DNA of 14,152 nucleotides from a virus. Lineage: Duplodnaviria > Heunggongvirae > Uroviricota > Caudoviricetes. Made by a program: the position numbers and the translations under genes. The stretch is from positions 1 to 14,152 of the IMG/VR virus record IMGVR_UViG_648276651_000001. The stretch is one strand, 5' to 3'. Positions within the stretch are counted from its first letter, which is position 1, and every line of letters begins with the position of its first letter. The notes beneath the pieces were generated by a model, which saw only the letters and a list, made by a program, of their open reading frames with translations, searched no databases and had not been told where the DNA came from. This document shows positions 1 through 7,311 of the stretch, one piece after another.

Positions 1-6
1 ATTGAG

Positions 7-306
7 ATGTTGCGGGCGCAGTGTCGGATCGATATTGACGATGCAACCGAAGATGAACTGCTGACGCTGTATTTCACAGCTGCTCGGCGTCGCGCAGAGA
101 ACTTCATTAATCGGAAACTGTATGAAGACTCTGTGCCTGATACCGATCCAGACGGGTTAAACATTGCTGACGATATCCTCCTGGCGCTGATGCTTCTTGT
201 TGGGCATTGGTTCAACAGCAGGGAAGAAGCTTCCGATGTAAATAAAATGAGCATTCCCTTCGGCTTCACTTCGTTGCTTGAACCCTACCGATATATCCCA
301 CTTTGA
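7..306 (+). CDS. Head-tail connector (gp6-like) protein; 5' end may extend beyond the window
   Basis: 99-aa ORF beginning MLRAQCRIDIDDATEDELLTLYFTAARRRAENF, which resembles the N-terminal region of gp6-like head-tail connector proteins. The frame is open to position 1 (codons ATT GAG precede the ATG), so the true start may be upstream. Position directly before the head-closure gene fits. Confidence 0.55.
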   Translation: MLRAQCRIDIDDATEDELLTLYFTAARRRAENFINRKLYEDSVPDTDPDGLNIADDILLALMLLVGHWFNSREEASDVNKMSIPFGFTSLLEPYRYIPL

Positions 307-375
307 GGTGATTTATGGCCTGTGAAGGGTGTCTCCGTCGGCGTGAGTGGTTAAAAAAGTGGACGAAAATAGCCT

Positions 376-573
376 ATGAACGAGCAACTGGTAAACGCGC
401 TGATAGCAGCGCTGAGAGAACAAACAACAGCACAGCGAGAGCAGACGGAAGCGATAAACCGCCTGGCTGAGTCTAACGTCGCCCTGTCCGATGTGATTAT
501 CCAGTCGCTTGCCGGCGATCTCGATGAGGCGCCAGAGCAGCAAACCTATCTGAGCGGGAAACCCGGGGGGTGA
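376..573 (+). CDS. Small hypothetical phage protein (65 aa), predicted helical
   Basis: ORF whose stop (571-573) sits 1 nt before the ATG of the next gene at 575, suggesting coupling. No recognisable family. A competing 51-aa ORF (315-470, other frame) has a better Shine-Dalgarno, so the call is uncertain. Confidence 0.35.
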   Translation: MNEQLVNALIAALREQTTAQREQTEAINRLAESNVALSDVIIQSLAGDLDEAPEQQTYLSGKPGG

Positions 574-574
574 T

Positions 575-907
575 ATGCAGGCCGGAAAATTGCGTCACAG
601 GATCACCCTGCAGGAACCGGTCAAAGAACAGAACCCGACAACGGGAGCCGTAATTAATACCTGGCGCGATGTCGCAACCCTTTGGGCCGAAGTCGCTCCT
701 TTATCCGCACGTGAGTTTATCGCCGCCCAGGCCTCTCAGGGCGAAGTTACCACCCGGATAACGATTCGTTACCGTGAGGGTGTTACCCGCAAACATCGGA
801 TCCTGTTTCGTAGCCGCATCTACAACATTGAGGGCGTTTTACCTGACCCCCGGAGCGGCAGGGAATACCTGACACTGCCGTGTTCAGAGGGGGCTAACGA
901 TGGCTGA
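575..907 (+). CDS. Phage head closure / head-tail adaptor protein (Phage_H_T_join-like)
   Basis: 110-aa protein with LRHRITLQ ... WAEV ... TTRITIRYREGVT ... RIYNIEG, matching the conserved pattern of head-tail joining proteins. GGGGG Shine-Dalgarno upstream. Its stop overlaps the next gene start. Confidence 0.7.
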   Translation: MQAGKLRHRITLQEPVKEQNPTTGAVINTWRDVATLWAEVAPLSAREFIAAQASQGEVTTRITIRYREGVTRKHRILFRSRIYNIEGVLPDPRSGREYLTLPCSEGANDG

Positions 908-1439
908 TGGCGTGGAAGTAAACCTGACCGGCCTTGATTCCGTCCTGGGGAAACTGGATGCCGTCTCACAGGTCACTCGCGATAAATCCGGTCGTGCAGC
1001 GCTGCGTAAAGCGGCAAACGTCATCAGGGACAGAGCGCGCAATAATGCCGCGCGGGTTGATGATCCTCTCACCAAAGAGGCTATCTACAAAAACATTGTG
1101 GTCAGTTTCAGCAGCAAGGCATTTCGCAGAACCGGCGATCCAACGTTTCGTGTCGGGGTGATGGGCGGCGCCAGGCAATACGCCAATACAAAGGCCAACG
1201 TCCGAAAAGGCAGGGCGGGTAAAAGTTTTAACACTGCCGGAGATAAAGGTAATCCCGGCGGGGATACCTGGTACTGGCGATTCCTGGAGTTCGGCACAGA
1301 ACATGCTGCAGCGAGGCCAATAATTAGGCCTGCACTGAATGGGGTCGATGCCGATGTGATTAACGTTTTTGCTTTGGAGCTGGAAAAGTCCATCGATCGC
1401 GCTGTACGACGGGCGGCTAAAAAAGGAACTCCGGTATGA
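900..1439 (+). CDS. HK97 gp10-family phage protein (tail component)
   Basis: 179-aa protein containing WRFLEFGTEHAAARPIIRPAL, consistent with the EFGT...RPF.RPA signature of the HK97 gp10 family. GAGGGGG Shine-Dalgarno 5 nt upstream of the ATG at 900; 8-nt overlap with the previous gene. Confidence 0.65.
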   Translation: MADGVEVNLTGLDSVLGKLDAVSQVTRDKSGRAALRKAANVIRDRARNNAARVDDPLTKEAIYKNIVVSFSSKAFRRTGDPTFRVGVMGGARQYANTKANVRKGRAGKSFNTAGDKGNPGGDTWYWRFLEFGTEHAAARPIIRPALNGVDADVINVFALELEKSIDRAVRRAAKKGTPV

Positions 1440-1801
1440 TTGCTCCAATATTTGCAGTTTGCGCAGCCAGCCAGGCAGTCAGGGATTTGTTAGGTTCTAC
1501 TCCCGTGCGGCTTTATCCGTTCGGTATGCAGGACGACAATATCGTTTATCCCTACGCAGTCTGGCAAAACGTAGGTGGCTTCCCTGAAAATTATCTAAAC
1601 CAGCGGCCAGATGCAGATCACTATTCTCTGCAGGTTGATGTCTATGGTGATACTGACACCGACGTGATCGCCGTTGCCCGTGCTTTACGCGACGCAATTG
1701 AGGGCAAGGCCTATATCACCCGATGGGGTGAACAAAGCCGCGATCCTGAAACAATGCGATACCGCTATTCCTTCGATGTTGACTGGATAACGACCAGATA
1801 A
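1436..1801 (+). CDS. Tail completion / tail terminator-like protein (DUF3168-like)
   Basis: 121-aa ORF with ATGA overlap to the gp10-like gene, immediately upstream of the major tail gene. Size and position fit a gp11/DUF3168-type protein. Assignment is by synteny plus weak recollection of the family. Confidence 0.5.
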
Positions 1802-1817
1802 CCAACAACCACAAACT

Positions 1818-1844
1818 GACCCGCCTTGTGCGGGTTTTTCTTTT
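1818..1844 (+). terminator. Hairpin plus T-tract (intrinsic terminator-like) upstream of the major tail gene
   Basis: Stem CCCGC (1820-1824), loop CTTGT, stem GCGGG (1830-1834), followed by TTTTTCTTTT (1835-1844). Confidence 0.5.
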
Positions 1845-1857
1845 ATGGAGACAAAAC

Positions 1858-2349
1858 ATGTCTGTATTAACGCAAGGCACGCAGTTTTTTGTGCTCAAGT
1901 CTGGCGTGGTCAGCGAGGTTGAATGCATCACCAGTTTCAACCCCGGCGGGAACCCTGCCGATCAGATTGAAGATACCTGTCTGAGTGAACGGGATTCCAG
2001 AACCTACAAAAAGGGGCTTAAAACGCCTGCGGCCGCAACCGTCGGGCTTAACGCTGATCCGACGAACGCCAGCCACATTATGTTGCATGGCCTCGCTGAA
2101 GCGAATGACCAGACGCCGTTAACTTTTGCGGTTGGCTGGTCAGATGGAACCAGTGTCCCGACAGCCGCCGCTCCTGGCGCTGAGGATGCTGTTGATGGCC
2201 TGGTGCTGCCATCGGATCGCACCTGGTTCATTTTCCAGGGTTACGTTTCTGACTTCCCGTTTGATTTTCAGGGTAACGCTGTTGTGACGACCTCCGCCAC
2301 GATCCAGCGGTCTGGCTCTTCCGTATGGGTGCCTAAGGCCGCAGCGTAA
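1858..2349 (+). CDS. Major tail (tail tube) protein
   Basis: 163-aa ORF starting at ATG 1858 (GGAG at 1848-1851), not at the track start 1828, which overlaps the hairpin. Position after the tail completion gene and before the chaperone pair; flanked by two hairpin terminators, as is typical for the most abundant tail component. Confidence 0.7.
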
Positions 2350-2356
2350 TTAATAT

Positions 2357-2381
2357 GCCCGGTTATCCGGGCTTTTCTATT
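2357..2381 (+). terminator. Intrinsic terminator downstream of the major tail gene
   Basis: Stem GCCCGG (2357-2362), loop TTAT, stem CCGGGC (2367-2372), then TTTTCTATT. AGGAG Shine-Dalgarno of the next gene follows. Confidence 0.6.
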
Positions 2382-2392
2382 CAGGAGCTGAA

Positions 2393-2746
2393 ATGCAACT
2401 TACTCTCGATACGTTAAAAGAAACCGGTGCTTTTACCGGGCGTCCCGTGGAAAAAGAAATTAAGTGGAAAGGCCGTGACGGGAAAGAGCATATCGCAACC
2501 GTCTATGTGCGCCCGATGGGCTACCACACCACTAAAGCTGAACTGCTGGCGTATAACGGGAAATCGGACCCGATTGCTGAGCGCATTGCGGCGCATATTT
2601 GCGATCAGGACGGCGCCCCAGTGTTTACCGCGGCTGACATTCTTGGGACTGCTACCCCGGATCGTGGGGCGCTGGACGGACCGATTGTTATGGCCCTCCT
2701 GGCTGCAATTCATGATGTAAACGAACTGGGAAAGACTACGAGCTAA
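2393..2746 (+). CDS. Tail assembly chaperone (lambda gpG analogue)
   Basis: 117-aa ORF directly after the major tail gene. Contains the slippery heptamer G GGA AAG four codons before its stop, with an overlapping -1 frame continuing for about 100 codons. Confidence 0.7.
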   Translation: MQLTLDTLKETGAFTGRPVEKEIKWKGRDGKEHIATVYVRPMGYHTTKAELLAYNGKSDPIAERIAAHICDQDGAPVFTAADILGTATPDRGALDGPIVMALLAAIHDVNELGKTTS

Positions 2747-3042
2747 CCGGCGAGGATGAATTCTGGTGCGAACTGGTGATGAACGGCATCGGCGGCCGCA
2801 CCATTGCAGAGGCTCAGGAGCGGATGAGTCGCAGGGAATTTCTGGTTTGGCTCAAGTACCGTGAGAAGTACGGACCGCTCAATATCATGATGCGTACTGA
2901 GTGGGGGGCTTCGCTGGTGGCTTCTGTCCTGGCTAACATCAATAAGGCAAAAAACACGCCGCCGTTCAAGGTAAGTGACTTTGCACCGCACATCAACGAA
3001 GCGCCATTATCTCTGGAAGAAGCTATGAAAAGTTGGCATTGA
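2393..3042 (+). CDS. Tail assembly chaperone fusion (gpGT analogue) made by -1 frameshift at 2728-2734
   Basis: Joining the G-like frame up to the slippery site with the -1 frame gives about 216 aa. The extension (…DYELTGEDEFWCELVMNGIGG…SRREFLVWLKYREKYGPLNIMMRTEW…) has the aromatic-rich character of lambda T / DUF4035-type domains. The track ORF 2776-3042 starts at a GTG inside this extension and has no Shine-Dalgarno of its own. Confidence 0.65.
2728..2734 (+). promoter_or_regulatory. Programmed -1 ribosomal frameshift slippery site (G GGA AAG)
   Basis: In the G-like frame the codons are CTG GGA AAG (2726-2734), an X XXY YYZ heptamer identical to the lambda G/GT site. The -1 frame is open from 2716 (after TGA at 2713-2715) to the stop at 3040-3042. 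Confidence 0.75.
2913..2920 (+). other. Chi site (5'-GCTGGTGG-3')
   Basis: Exact octamer on the + strand. Confidence 0.6.
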
Positions 3043-3098
3043 TATCATTTATTTGGTTATATTCTCTCTGGGATGATTATATTGATACCGAGGGGATT

Positions 3099-3470
3099 AT
3101 GATAAAGAAAGCAGCTGTTGTTTTTACTGTAATGTTTTTAGGTGGCTGCGTTAGTGCGCCAGATAAGGCGGAGCTAAGCCGCGCCGATTATGGGAAGTTA
3201 CCTGATAATTATCAGGAAATAATTAAAAATAGTATGTCGGCGCGCCTTAAGGACCCTTATTCTGCACGATATGATTTCAATGAACCTTTCAAAGGCTGGT
3301 GCAAATCAGGATTTACAACTTATTACGGATGGTTAGTTCCTTTTACTCTTAACGCTAAAAACAGTTATGGCGGTTATGTTGGTAATAAGTCTTATCTGTA
3401 TCTTGTTAATCAAAATAGCGCCACTGACTTTACTGCATCCTTCCAAATCGGTGGGTGCGGTAAAAGTTAA
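3099..3470 (+). CDS. Predicted lipoprotein (moron between chaperone and tape measure genes)
   Basis: ATG at 3099 preceded by GAGGGG. N-terminus MIKKAAVVFTVMFLGGC is a signal peptide with lipobox L-G-G-C; Val at +2 suggests outer-membrane sorting in enterics. Two further Cys in the mature part. Visibly AT-rich relative to neighbours and followed by its own terminator. Family not recognised. Confidence 0.6.
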   Translation: MIKKAAVVFTVMFLGGCVSAPDKAELSRADYGKLPDNYQEIIKNSMSARLKDPYSARYDFNEPFKGWCKSGFTTYYGWLVPFTLNAKNSYGGYVGNKSYLYLVNQNSATDFTASFQIGGCGKS

Positions 3471-3492
3471 ATTAGCTAAATCATAAAATAAA

Positions 3493-3517
3493 CCTCGCTC
3501 CTGCGGGGTTTTTTATT
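3493..3517 (+). terminator. Intrinsic terminator after the lipoprotein gene
   Basis: Stem CCTCGC (3493-3498), loop TCCT, stem GCGGGG (3503-3508; one G-U pair), then TTTTTTATT. Confidence 0.55.
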
Positions 3518-3533
3518 GCCTGGAGAAAATTCA

Positions 3534-5969
3534 ATGGCTGGCAAGTCCCTTGGTACGTTAACAATCGACCTGATCGCAAAAGTGGGTGGATTTGTTCAGG
3601 GTATGGACAAAGCCGAAAGATCTTCTCAAAAGTGGCGTGACCAAGTAAAAAAGGATGCTAAAGAGGTTAGTTCTTCAATCATTGCTGTGGGTGCTGCGGC
3701 GGCTACAGCAGCTGTTGGCATTGGTGCTGCTGGGTTAGCCATAGTTAAAAATACTGCACAGCAGGTTACAGAAGCTGATCGCTGGGCAAAATCTCTTAAA
3801 ATGTCCACCCAGGATTTGTTATCCTGGCAATACGCTGCTGAACAAGCCGGTTTAACCGGTGACAACATAGCCGATATTTTCAAAGACATTAATGATAAGG
3901 TCGGTGATGCGGTCCTGAATAAATCAGGTGAGGCAGCTCAGGCGCTGGATACTTTGGGGCTTTCAGCTCAGAAGCTGGCTCAGCAATCCCCAGACAAGCA
4001 GCTGATGGCAATCAGTGAAGCATTACAGAAAATCCCCACTCAGGCCGGGAAAACAAATATTCTCGAAAGCCTGGGTAATGACCTGTCAAAAATGCTGCCG
4101 TTGTTCGACAACAACAACGAGAAGCTGAAACAGTTTATCCAGCTATCAAAAGATTTTGGTGTCGCACCACCGCAAGAAGATATTGATAACCTTGTTAAGG
4201 TTAATCAGTTCTTTCAGGATATAGAGACTAGCGCCCGCGGTCTTAAAATGGAAATTGCTTCGGGGCTGGCTAAGGTTGACCTTACACCATTGCAGGATGG
4301 GCTTGATGACATTCGTGACGTCTTCACCGATCCTGCTGTTCTTCAGGGGCTATCAGACCTGGTTGGTGAAGCCATAAGCCTTGCCGGGGTTGTGGGACGT
4401 ATTGCTGGTGGCTTGGGGGCCATTGCTACTTATACCCGCTCGCGTATAGGTGCTGTATCTGGTAATTATAATGCTGCTGATGAAAGTGATATTGCACAGA
4501 GAATTGAATTCCTTAACAAACGAGGGAATCAAAGTAAGGAGCAAAAAGACGAATTAGAATTTTTAACTAAACGTCTTCAATTTCTTCGCGCGATAAAATC
4601 AAGCATGACTCCGGAGCAGGTAGATAGAGGAGCGAAAGGGCTCTCGTCTCTACTTTCTGATCTTGGCATTGATACGTCTAAAGATAATGATTTTTCGTTG
4701 GGCAAAGGGGAGTCTAACCAGAATCAGCCAAAAACAAAACCAAAAAGCAATCCGACTGACAATGCTTTTAAAAATCGACTTCTTGACTTACAAAAGCAAG
4801 CTGCACTTATTGAAACAACAGGCAAAAAAACAGCTGAAGTTACAGAGCTTGAAAAAATAAACTTCGATATAAGCAGTGGTAATCTAAAAAAACTTTCCGA
4901 AGGTCAAAAAGACCAGTTGCGAACAGCTGCAAAGTTTCTTGATTCTAAGAAGGAAGAACTTCGTCTTAATCAGGAAAATGCGAAAGTTGCCGAGTACGTT
5001 TCAGGTCTTGAAAGGCAGAATAAATTAATTAAGCAGGGATATGATAGTGAATTTATTGGGCGTTATTCTGGAGATCGGGAACGTAGCCGGATGCAAGAAC
5101 GCAACAGTATTCAGCAGGAGTATGAAGGGAATCGCGAGGATTTATTAAAGCAATACCAATCTGGTGATATTTCTAAAAGTCTTTATGACGCTGAAACTGA
5201 AGCTTTGCAAGATGCACTGAATAAGAGGTTAGAAATTCAAAATGATTATTATAAGCAACAGGATGAATTACAGAATGATTACAGTGCTGGGTTAATTTCT
5301 GGTTTTGCTGCACAGGCTACTGCTGCGATGGATTTGTACTCCACAATGCAGCAAGTTGGGGCGCAAACATTCAGCAGCATGACCGACATGATTATAACTT
5401 GGGCAGAAACTGGAAAGTTGAACGCTCAAGATTTTGCAGCGACCTTTATACAGTCTGTAGGTGCGGCAATGCTGCAATATGCCGCTGCTCAGGTAGCAAT
5501 GGCGGCGCTTAATGCCTTCACTCAATGGATAGGTGTTCCTTACGTTGGCCCGGCGGTGGCTCCGGCTCAAGCAATTGCAGCAGCTGCAGCAGCTGGCGTA
5601 TTCATGACGGCGATCGGGTCGGCATTGCACGGCCAGGCTCACGACGGTATCGACTCTGTGCCTGAAACAGGAACTTGGCTCCTGCAGAAAGGTGAGCGCG
5701 TTACGACAGCTAAAACCAGCGCCAAACTTGACGCCACTCTGGATCGAGTTGCAAACCAGTCAACAGGCGGCGGCGCGATTTATTCACCCACAATCAATAT
5801 CCCCATAAATGGTAACCCTTCCGATGCGACAGTAGCCCTCGTGCGCAAAGCCGCTGCTGAAGGTGCTGAGCGCGGCTACCGAAAAGCTGTCAACTCGGTG
5901 ACTACTGGGCAAGGTGATCTACACAGGGCACTTATGGTGAAAACCAACTCGGGGAGGAAAATTCGCTGA
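3534..5969 (+). CDS. Tail tape measure protein
   Basis: 811-aa ORF starting at ATG 3534 (GGAG at 3522-3525), not the TTG at 3516. Ala/Gly-rich N-terminal segment, long coiled-coil middle and hydrophobic Ala-rich C-terminal part are typical of lambda-family tape measure proteins. Stop overlaps the next start (TGATG). Confidence 0.85.
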   Translation: MAGKSLGTLTIDLIAKVGGFVQGMDKAERSSQKWRDQVKKDAKEVSSSIIAVGAAAATAAVGIGAAGLAIVKNTAQQVTEADRWAKSLKMSTQDLLSWQYAAEQAGLTGDNIADIFKDINDKVGDAVLNKSGEAAQALDTLGLSAQKLAQQSPDKQLMAISEALQKIPTQAGKTNILESLGNDLSKMLPLFDNNNEKLKQFIQLSKDFGVAPPQEDIDNLVKVNQFFQDIETSARGLKMEIASGLAKVDLTPLQDGLDDIRDVFTDPAVLQGLSDLVGEAISLAGVVGRIAGGLGAIATYTRSRIGAVSGNYNAADESDIAQRIEFLNKRGNQSKEQKDELEFLTKRLQFLRAIKSSMTPEQVDRGAKGLSSLLSDLGIDTSKDNDFSLGKGESNQNQPKTKPKSNPTDNAFKNRLLDLQKQAALIETTGKKTAEVTELEKINFDISSGNLKKLSEGQKDQLRTAAKFLDSKKEELRLNQENAKVAEYVSGLERQNKLIKQGYDSEFIGRYSGDRERSRMQERNSIQQEYEGNREDLLKQYQSGDISKSLYDAETEALQDALNKRLEIQNDYYKQQDELQNDYSAGLISGFAAQATAAMDLYSTMQQVGAQTFSSMTDMIITWAETGKLNAQDFAATFIQSVGAAMLQYAAAQVAMAALNAFTQWIGVPYVGPAVAPAQAIAAAAAAGVFMTAIGSALHGQAHDGIDSVPETGTWLLQKGERVTTAKTSAKLDATLDRVANQSTGGGAIYSPTINIPINGNPSDATVALVRKAAAEGAERGYRKAVNSVTTGQGDLHRALMVKTNSGRKIR
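4404..4411 (+). other. Chi site (5'-GCTGGTGG-3')
   Basis: Exact octamer on the + strand. Confidence 0.6.
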
Positions 5970-6448
5970 TGGCTATCACCACGACACTTTACTACCCCGC
6001 TGATGTTCTCCCTGGGCCGTTGAAAGACGGCTTTGGAATGAAGCCGAAATCCCCGGTAAAAATCACCGAGCTCGTAACGGGGCGCAAAAGAATACGACGT
6101 GGCTATACCTCTGTTCCTACGGAAACAGATGTAGCCTGGATTTTTACTGACGCGCAGGCCCAGGCTTTTGAGGCATGGTACCGGGATGTTCTAAAAGACG
6201 GCAGCGCCTGGTTTAACATGCCGCTACTGACGCCAGTGGGCCAAAAAAATTACGTTTGCAGGTTTAACGATATTTATGAGGGGCCTACGCCTGAAGGAGG
6301 CTTGTACTGGCGGTATTCAGCATCCCTTGAGTTATGGGAACGGCCGCTGCCGGCGGTTGGCTGGGGAGAATATCCGGAGTGGATTGTGGGGAGTTCGTTA
6401 CTCGATATAGCTCTGAACAGGGAGTGGCCTAAGCATGACAGCGATTAA
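5969..6448 (+). CDS. Minor tail protein (first gene after tape measure; distal-tail/gpM-position analogue)
   Basis: 159-aa ORF coupled to the tape measure stop. Assigned by position only; no family motif recognised. Confidence 0.45.
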   Translation: MAITTTLYYPADVLPGPLKDGFGMKPKSPVKITELVTGRKRIRRGYTSVPTETDVAWIFTDAQAQAFEAWYRDVLKDGSAWFNMPLLTPVGQKNYVCRFNDIYEGPTPEGGLYWRYSASLELWERPLPAVGWGEYPEWIVGSSLLDIALNREWPKHDSD

Positions 6449-6917
6449 CCGCCTTTATGCGTCCTCCGGGTCGGAGGTCATCATTGGTACGTTGCAGATC
6501 GATATTGGCGGCCAGAAGCATTATCTGTGTGAGGGGTACGAGGACATTACGGCGGTTACCGAGAGGGGCGAAACCGTAACGTTTATTGCCTGTGCCATTG
6601 TCCTATCCCTTCCTGCCAGAAACGAAGACGGGACGCAGGACCTGAAGTTTATGCTGTGCAACGTCGACGGCGTTGTATCCACCGCTATACGCAAGGCCAT
6701 TGATGCCATGTCCACTGCCAGCATCACGTTCAGGAAATACATTTCCACTGACCTTACAGCGCCAGCGGAGCCGCCTTACGTCATGCCGGTTAAAGGAGGC
6801 TCCTGGACACCGCTGACTGTAAACGTCACTGCTGGTTTTAAAAATATGCTCGATTATGCCTGGCCACGTGACAGGTACACATTGACGTACTTCCAGGGTC
6901 TTCGTTACACACGATAG
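6435..6917 (+). CDS. Minor tail protein (possibly DUF1833-like)
   Basis: 160-aa ORF overlapping the previous gene by 14 nt; GGAG upstream. Synteny between the tape measure gene and an NlpC/P60-like gene matches tail-tip assembly genes. The DUF1833 guess comes from size and context only. Confidence 0.4.
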   Translation: MTAINRLYASSGSEVIIGTLQIDIGGQKHYLCEGYEDITAVTERGETVTFIACAIVLSLPARNEDGTQDLKFMLCNVDGVVSTAIRKAIDAMSTASITFRKYISTDLTAPAEPPYVMPVKGGSWTPLTVNVTAGFKNMLDYAWPRDRYTLTYFQGLRYTR

Positions 6918-6924
6918 GTATCCC

Positions 6925-7311
6925 ATGATCAACATTGATAAATACCTGACCGTCCGCTGGCAGATGGGCGGCCGCACTTTTCCTGTTCTCGACTGCTACG
7001 GCATTGTACATGAGGTCCGCCGGGACCTGGGGCTGCCTGAATGGCCCGCGTTTGAGGCTGTGATTAAAGAGCGTGGCAGCACTGAAATGGGGGAAGTCTG
7101 CGAGAGTTTTTCGCGTGACCTGACTCACTGCAAGCCGTGCAACGGTGCGGTTGCCGCCTGCTATATGGGAAATATGATCGGCCACCTTGGTGTTGTCGTC
7201 GAAATGGAGGGAGCGCTTTACGTTATTGAATGTAATCCCCGGCGCAACGTAACCATTCTTCCCCTGGCGCGTTTTGAACGCCAGTTTCTGAAAGTGGAGT
7301 ATTACCAGTGA
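6925..7311 (+). CDS. Tail-associated NlpC/P60 (C40) family peptidase-like protein (lambda gpK-domain analogue)
   Basis: 128-aa ORF with candidate catalytic Cys in LDCYGIV near the N-terminus and His in MIGHLGVVV, at the spacing expected for a minimal NlpC/P60 fold. GTGA overlap with the J-like gene. Confidence 0.5.
   Translation: MINIDKYLTVRWQMGGRTFPVLDCYGIVHEVRRDLGLPEWPAFEAVIKERGSTEMGEVCESFSRDLTHCKPCNGAVAACYMGNMIGHLGVVVEMEGALYVIECNPRRNVTILPLARFERQFLKVEYYQ

Follow-up and report, generated by a model that had tools for sequence, protein, structure and literature searches.

In phage lambda, the tail proteins G and GT are made at a ratio of 30:1, with G binding the tape measure protein and the T domain binding the tail tube protein, and the heptamer G_GGA_AAG is described as highly shift-prone in E. 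coli (PMC5009743). HK022 is listed, in a part of PMC5313236 that cites Xu, Hendrix and Duda 2004, among the phages in which a tail chaperone frameshift has been confirmed experimentally, and two members of a prophage gene cluster similar to an HK97 protein gave 6-7% frameshifting in a reporter (PMC3711429). The tau/gamma site of E. coli dnaX likewise operates by tandem -1 slippage, at an X XXY YYZ heptamer ending in A AAG and with the same tRNA-Lys (PMC5009743), although the dnaX shift truncates its protein whereas the shift considered here would extend it. Here we describe the corresponding locus in a 14,152-nucleotide stretch of DNA, referred to throughout as the window (IMG/VR virus record IMGVR_UViG_648276651_000001, positions 1 to 14,152). 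The window is the tail module of a lambda/HK022-like siphovirus, and its closest records are the Klebsiella phages KPP5665-2 (98.9% identity) and KpF5, together with many Klebsiella and E. coli prophages. On the comparative sequence evidence assembled below, we consider with high confidence that the tail assembly chaperone gene of this HK022-like siphovirus Klebsiella prophage undergoes a programmed -1 ribosomal frameshift. Such frameshifting, the family and the orthologous site have all been described before, and the locus adds nothing biologically new to the G/GT paradigm; its main value lies in annotation, as public records routinely split the gene in two.

According to this model, most ribosomes would read 2393-2746 and release the 117-aa chaperone as the major product. 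A minority would slip back by one base with tRNA-Gly on GGA and tRNA-Lys on AAG of the heptamer G GGA AAG (2728-2734), the tRNA-Gly re-pairing from GGA to GGG and the tRNA-Lys from AAG to AAA; translation would then resume at GAC 2734 and run to the stop at 3040-3042, yielding as a minor product a 216-aa GT fusion with a lambda-T-type C-terminal domain. If the analogy with lambda holds, the chaperone part common to both products would coat the tape measure protein, the rare T domain would recruit the tail tube protein, and both G and GT would be absent from the finished virion. Homology likewise predicts these protein partners and a need for the GT fusion in tail assembly, and the 216-aa fusion is very probably the functional product. 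We infer the shift itself, at 2728-2734, from the anatomy of the locus, the identities of its domains, the conservation of the slip site and a switch in the frame under constraint, each of which is presented as an observation in the following sections.

Gene order, domains and overlapping frames

The features by which a G/GT frameshift is recognised were taken from Levin 1993 and from Xu, Hendrix and Duda 2004, and include the position of the gene pair, an in-phase X XXY YYZ heptamer within the overlap of two open reading frames, and constraint on the T frame that reaches the slip site. The plus-strand genes of the window are arranged in the order tail tube, G, T and tape measure, and the lambda pair also lies between the tail tube and tape measure genes. 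The major tail tube protein gene (1858-2349; Pfam Phage_TTP_11, 3e-65) and the tape measure protein gene (3534-5969; Pfam Tape_meas_lam_C, 4e-14; PHROG 2854, 3e-295) are given here with the starts annotated in relatives, ATG 1858 and ATG 3534; a mechanical list of open reading frames starts them at GTG 1828 and TTG 3516, respectively. Genes for head-tail connector, head closure, gp10-like and gp17 tail completion proteins lie farther upstream, and a DUF1833 protein and a gpJ-like protein are encoded downstream. The position of the pair carries one caveat, in that a gene for a 123-aa lipoprotein (3099-3470) separates T from the tape measure gene.

The G-like chaperone, read in the zero frame, matches the full length of Pfam Phage_TAC_13 (PF16459; profile positions 1-98) with 106.6 bits (9e-31), above the gathering cut-off of 28.8 bits, and also PHROG 1749, 'tail assembly chaperone' (2.5e-45). 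The -1 extension matches Pfam Phage_tail_T (PF06223, lambda minor tail protein T) with 34.9 bits (2e-8), above the gathering cut-off of 25.9 bits, with lambda T itself scoring 54.1 bits; PHROG 337, 'tail protein', spans T residues 7-102 and thus begins upstream of Met16. A direct hhalign comparison of a T profile with the single lambda T sequence gave a weak local match (E = 0.023) over the motif MS..E(F/Y)..W..(Y/F), so that membership in the T family is established through the Pfam model. A search for PDB sequence matches to the fusion returned none at E<=1. The chaperone's 90%-identity protein cluster has a 176-aa representative and includes 176-177-aa proteins described as 'KilA-N domain-containing', but one of these (P0019, 177 aa) has no BLASTP similarity to the chaperone, and their membership therefore looks like a clustering artefact and not biology.

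Judged by these comparisons, the true orthologue of the window pair is HK022 gp13/gp14 (AF069308), an orthologous locus with which the window shares its gene order. HK022 also carries Phage_TAC_13 (gp13, 117.9 bits) and Phage_tail_T domains, its slip context CTGGGAAAGAC is identical to that of the window, and the annotation gives gp14 as a join of two pieces, 'presumed to be expressed as the downstream part of a translational frameshift product'. The T parts are 57.5% identical and the G genes about 66% identical at the DNA level, with T beginning as DFELSAEDEFWCELV in HK022 and as DYELTGEDEFWCELV in the window. The two loci differ further in that the zero frame continues for 48 codons past the heptamer in HK022 but for three in the window, that HK022 has no start-type codon at the Val-Met position where the window has GTG ATG, and that 19 nt with no annotated gene separate T from the tape measure gene in HK022, whereas the window has the lipoprotein gene there.

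The earlier note had likened the locus to lambda G/GT, a comparison that holds for the heptamer, its phase, the gene position and the T domain but fails for the G part, which is of another chaperone family. The heptamer and its phase are identical in lambda, where five sense codons separate it from the G stop, compared with three in the window, and the Phage_tail_T domain begins at residue 29 after the slip site in lambda and at residue 32 in the window (about 30 in both). Lambda G is a Phage_TAC_2 protein, whereas the window chaperone is Phage_TAC_13, and the two are not detectably homologous: the window chaperone has no match to PF06894 (Phage_TAC_2) at E<=0.01, and when a 12-sequence profile was compared with lambda G by hhalign, no homology was detected (probability 0.45%). 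The T part is 144 aa in lambda and 102 aa in the window, and lambda T overlaps H directly whereas a cargo gene intervenes in the window. Given that G is not of the lambda gpG family, the term 'lambda-type' fits the mechanism, the geometry and the T domain.

The chaperone reading frame extends from ATG 2393 to TAA 2744-2746 and encodes 117 aa, and near its end the zero frame reads GTA AAC GAA CTG GGA AAG ACT ACG AGC TAA. Because (2728-2393) mod 3 = 2, the zero frame reads the heptamer at 2728-2734 as G GGA AAG, the X XXY YYZ phase for tandem -1 slippage, and its AAG is the fourth codon before the chaperone stop, with three sense codons in between; the earlier note had described the site in just this way, and both the letters and the phase were verified. 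The -1 frame is open from 2716 to 3042, ending with the stop at 3040-3042, and it was correctly described as lacking a start, as no ATG, GTG or TTG is present among the -1-frame codons of 2716-2775, the first being GTG 2776, followed by ATG 2779. The zero and -1 frames are both open at 2716-2746 and, as this is the sole such stretch, G could be joined to T by a -1 shift only there; the in-phase heptamer lies within it. The T part (2734-3042) consists of 102 codons plus the stop and includes a linker-coding stretch, YELTGEDEFWCEL (2735-2775), from the slip site to the first start-type codon, with the GTG ATG at 2776-2781 encoding Val15-Met16.

The predicted GT fusion contains codons 1-114 of G (2393-2734 joined to 2734-3042) and is 216 aa long. 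The codon after the shift is GAC at 2734, such that the junction would read NELGK followed by DYELTGEDEFWCELVMNG; the junction predicted earlier, NELGK followed by DYELTGEDEF, agrees with the translations. A predicted tryptic peptide of the fusion, DYELTGEDEFWCELVMNGIGGR, is absent from G and could not arise by initiation at ATG 2779, and a change of CTGGGAAAG to CTCGGCAAG is a synonymous alteration of the slip site in which Leu-Gly-Lys is kept.

The heptamer as a bare string is not enriched, with two copies of GGGAAAG in the window compared with 1.92 expected from shuffles. The second copy (2480-2486, plus strand), likewise within the chaperone gene, is read as GGG AAA G, the wrong phase, and the -1 frame there stops after 16 codons; it is kept in nearly all close relatives, with no function suggested. 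In-phase XXXYYYZ heptamers number 12 among the 4068 in-phase codon positions of the 14 confident plus-strand genes of the window (0.3% per codon), and the one at 2728 is alone among these 12 in having a long -1 open reading frame, of 102 codons compared with at most 19 for the other eleven.

Coding constraint and conservation at the slip site

Variation among close relatives was examined in 69 distinct sequences of a 650-nt G/T segment, in which the heptamer is GGGAAAG in 68 and GGGAAAA in the one remaining. All five variable columns within 2716-2734 fall at third positions of the G frame, whereas 11 of the 14 variable columns within 2735-2775 fall at third positions of the T frame. When the variant codons of 2734-2778 are classified as synonymous or non-synonymous, the ratio is 14:4 for the T frame, compared with 3:14 for the zero frame and 2:14 for the +1 frame. 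This codon-position pattern indicates that the frame under selection switches at the heptamer, 45 nt before the annotated ATG, and purifying selection on the -1 frame of the linker at 2735-2775 implies that the linker is translated from upstream. The T-frame constraint thus reaches the slip site, and the T frame has no conserved start of its own; GTG 2776 is replaced by GTC in 8 of the 69 variants, and four diverse relatives lack a start codon at this place. The locus illustrates cleanly how population variation, through a switch in the codon positions that vary, can locate a slip site to within a few bases.

The arrangement is retained over much greater distances. An in-phase XXXYYYZ heptamer is present inside the G/T overlap at the same place in 16/16 diverse relatives (phages of Escherichia, Klebsiella, Pseudomonas, Synechococcus, Acinetobacter, Vibrio, Halomonas and Streptomyces), although these relatives are homologous and do not constitute 16 independent observations. 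Five different heptamers are used, GGGAAAG in ten relatives, AAAAAAC in three, and GGGAAAA, CCCAAAG and GGGAAAC in one each, and such an exchange of slippery heptamers at a fixed position is expected if slipperiness is under selection. The two-frame arrangement and the slip site are therefore conserved despite divergence, in all 16 of these relatives as well as in 69/69 close variants. The zero-frame tail past the heptamer ranges from 0 to 48 codons among the relatives, and its sequence is not conserved.

Similarity in the T frame also extends upstream of the first start-type codons, with tblastn homology in distant phages beginning at T residues 1-4. In a 12-sequence T alignment, five of the 16 invariant residues (L4, W11, E13, L14 and V15) precede Met16. 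The HK022, Synechococcus, Acinetobacter and Vibrio relatives have their first T-frame start-type codon only 37-61 residues into T, and the residues corresponding to Val15-Met16 are Val-Leu in 7 of the 15 loci examined.

Alternative readings and expected efficiency

These data bear directly on how T is expressed. GenBank and RefSeq records treat T as an independent protein, which for the window would be 87-88 aa long with initiation at ATG 2779 or GTG 2776, and the heptamer would then be a coincidence. Codons of start type are indeed present at both positions, and although the GGUG upstream of 2779 is a weak match to the anti-Shine-Dalgarno sequence (-5.1 kcal/mol), it is similar to those of the real starts at 6925, 7308 and 10452. 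Since several real operon genes are equally weak, Shine-Dalgarno strength does not discriminate for or against such a start, and the earlier statement that T has no Shine-Dalgarno of its own loses its force on this account, the GGUG being no worse than the equivalents of several genes of the operon. The evidence from coding constraint is more telling, as purifying selection acts on the 41 nt before the GTG in the T frame and not in the zero frame (14:4 compared with 3:14), and five residues that are invariant across distant phages are encoded upstream of the ATG. Moreover, the HK022, Synechococcus, Acinetobacter and Vibrio homologues have no start codon at that location, and the position and phase of the heptamer are conserved. 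Independent expression of T with no frameshift at all is accordingly very improbable.

A frameshift could nonetheless coexist with some initiation at ATG 2779, so that three products would be made, namely G, GT and free T. In support of such a dual route, an ATG is present at T residue 16 in the window, in 69/69 close variants, and in D3, Psp6, FBPa47 and the Halomonas phage, so that about half of the relatives have it in frame, and the weak SD-like GGUG precedes ATG 2779. We nevertheless regard dual expression as unlikely, in that Met16 alternates with Leu in the relatives in the manner of an ordinary hydrophobic position, GTG 2776 has been lost in eight variants without consequence, a strong Shine-Dalgarno sequence is absent, and no report of free T in lambda was found in PMC5009743. 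A related pair of ideas, which we hold to be quite doubtful, is either that the ATG at T residue 16 serves as a second entry point, such that G, GT and free T would be present in a stoichiometry unlike that of lambda or HK022, or that the strongly conserved 15-residue DYELTGEDEFWCELV, left out of the annotated T, is a functional element of its own, for example a hinge or contact by which T works only when tethered to G. As for any gene read in two frames, the change could generically be ascribed to transcriptional slippage or to a sequencing or assembly indel, and nothing specific to this locus favours either. The homopolymer runs here are just G3 and A3, and the runs at which polymerases are known to slip are far longer; the two-frame arrangement recurs in at least 80 independent contigs and in distant phages, ruling out an assembly error, and a change of frame at this RNA or sequencing level is hardly credible. 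Programmed ribosomal frameshifting therefore remains much the best reading, and its likely efficiency may be considered from the sequences surrounding the heptamer.

The dnaX site reaches about 50% shifting by means of a downstream hairpin and an upstream SD-like element, the latter stimulating -1 shifting at a spacing of about 9-10 nt. Neither dnaX stimulator is present or conserved at the window site, and a stimulated site of the dnaX or IS-element type, with an upstream SD-like element and/or a hairpin or pseudoknot at 5-9 nt, was rejected for the window on this basis. Segments of 53-141 nt following or spanning the heptamer fold with minimum free energies no better than those of shuffles (z from +0.99 to -0.63), and RNAalifold yields a consensus structure with 0 pairs on 12 relatives. 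A hairpin located 4-5 nt downstream of the heptamer in HK022 and D3 was considered as a stimulator and set aside, as it is formed by two GAGCTC (Glu-Leu) palindromes and is not intact in the window. Upstream of the heptamer, no SD-like stimulator was found, anti-SD pairing being -0.4 kcal/mol in the window and about the same in most close variants. Lambda and the window are alike in lacking an upstream SD-like element, the corresponding pairing in lambda being -2.1 kcal/mol.

As the search for stimulatory elements was negative, a low efficiency resembling that of lambda is to be expected, and the shift probably occurs at a few percent, although for the same reason it could be very low; the 3-4% figure quoted in the earlier note belongs to lambda. 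The Pseudomonas phages D3 and FBPa47 (loci L085 and L087) have a GAGGUG (-10.2 kcal/mol) 9-10 nt upstream of GGGAAAG (heptamer at 695), and an upstream SD-like element is a feature of some relatives only and is not a conserved part of the site. Its presence in D3 and FBPa47, and its absence from the window and lambda, suggest that the efficiency of frameshifting may differ between lineages.

Annotation of T and accessory features of the window

The warning in the earlier note that T is easily miscalled as an independent gene is borne out by the public records. Near-identical GenBank and RefSeq loci call a protein of 87 aa from an ATG equivalent to 2779, the annotated T start in both KPP5665-2 and RefSeq E. 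coli corresponding to this position of the window, and the GTG ATG at 2776-2781 is thus used by annotation pipelines as a spurious independent start of 'tail assembly protein T'. This truncated 87-aa protein and the exact 117-aa G are each found on at least 1000 public contigs, and the 216-aa fusion is absent from a collection of 15 billion proteins. In the 87-aa call, 15 residues are lost, including five that do not vary among distant phages. Properly joined annotations are important for phage proteomics, for the structural modelling of tail assembly, and for work on tail chaperones as antigens or triggers of defence systems.

The segment between the T stop and the ATG of the tape measure gene (3043-3533) is a 491-nt slot of low GC content (0.32-0.40, compared with 0.53-0.56 in the tail tube, G and T genes). 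It is occupied in the window by the 123-aa lipoprotein gene (3099-3470, plus strand), whose product has a lipobox, MIKKAAVVFTVMFLGGC, and matches PHROG 2320 (unknown function), with no Pfam match. Among about 80 closely related IMG/VR G/T loci (77-99% DNA identity), the slot is 484-577 nt long and contains at least six different small genes for lipoproteins, membrane proteins or secreted proteins, so that its contents differ between prophages that are nearly identical elsewhere. The Pseudomonas relative D14Q has an SmpA/OmlA lipoprotein in the slot, and the slot is empty in HK022 and lambda. The slot looks like a hot spot for morons or genes of the superinfection-exclusion type.

Terminator-like hairpins are present on both sides of the G/T pair. 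One of these, a hairpin with a T run (AAACCTCGCTCCTGCGGGGTTT TTTATT; 3490-3511, plus strand), lies between the lipoprotein gene and the tape measure start and fits the cargo gene as a self-contained unit, even though it is located in the middle of the tail operon. The other, a GC-rich hairpin followed by TTTTCT (GCCCGGTTATCCGGGC; 2357-2372, plus strand), lies within the 43 nt that separate the end of the tail tube gene (2349) from the beginning of the chaperone gene (2393), and could be a partial terminator or an mRNA-stabilising element by which chaperone expression is lowered relative to that of the tube protein. Beyond the tail fibre genes, the minus strand encodes a 273-aa polytopic membrane protein (13253-14074) with sub-threshold matches to O-antigen ligase/Wzy polymerase (28.5 bits, compared with a cut-off of 31.7), and this gene may be serotype-conversion cargo or flanking host DNA.
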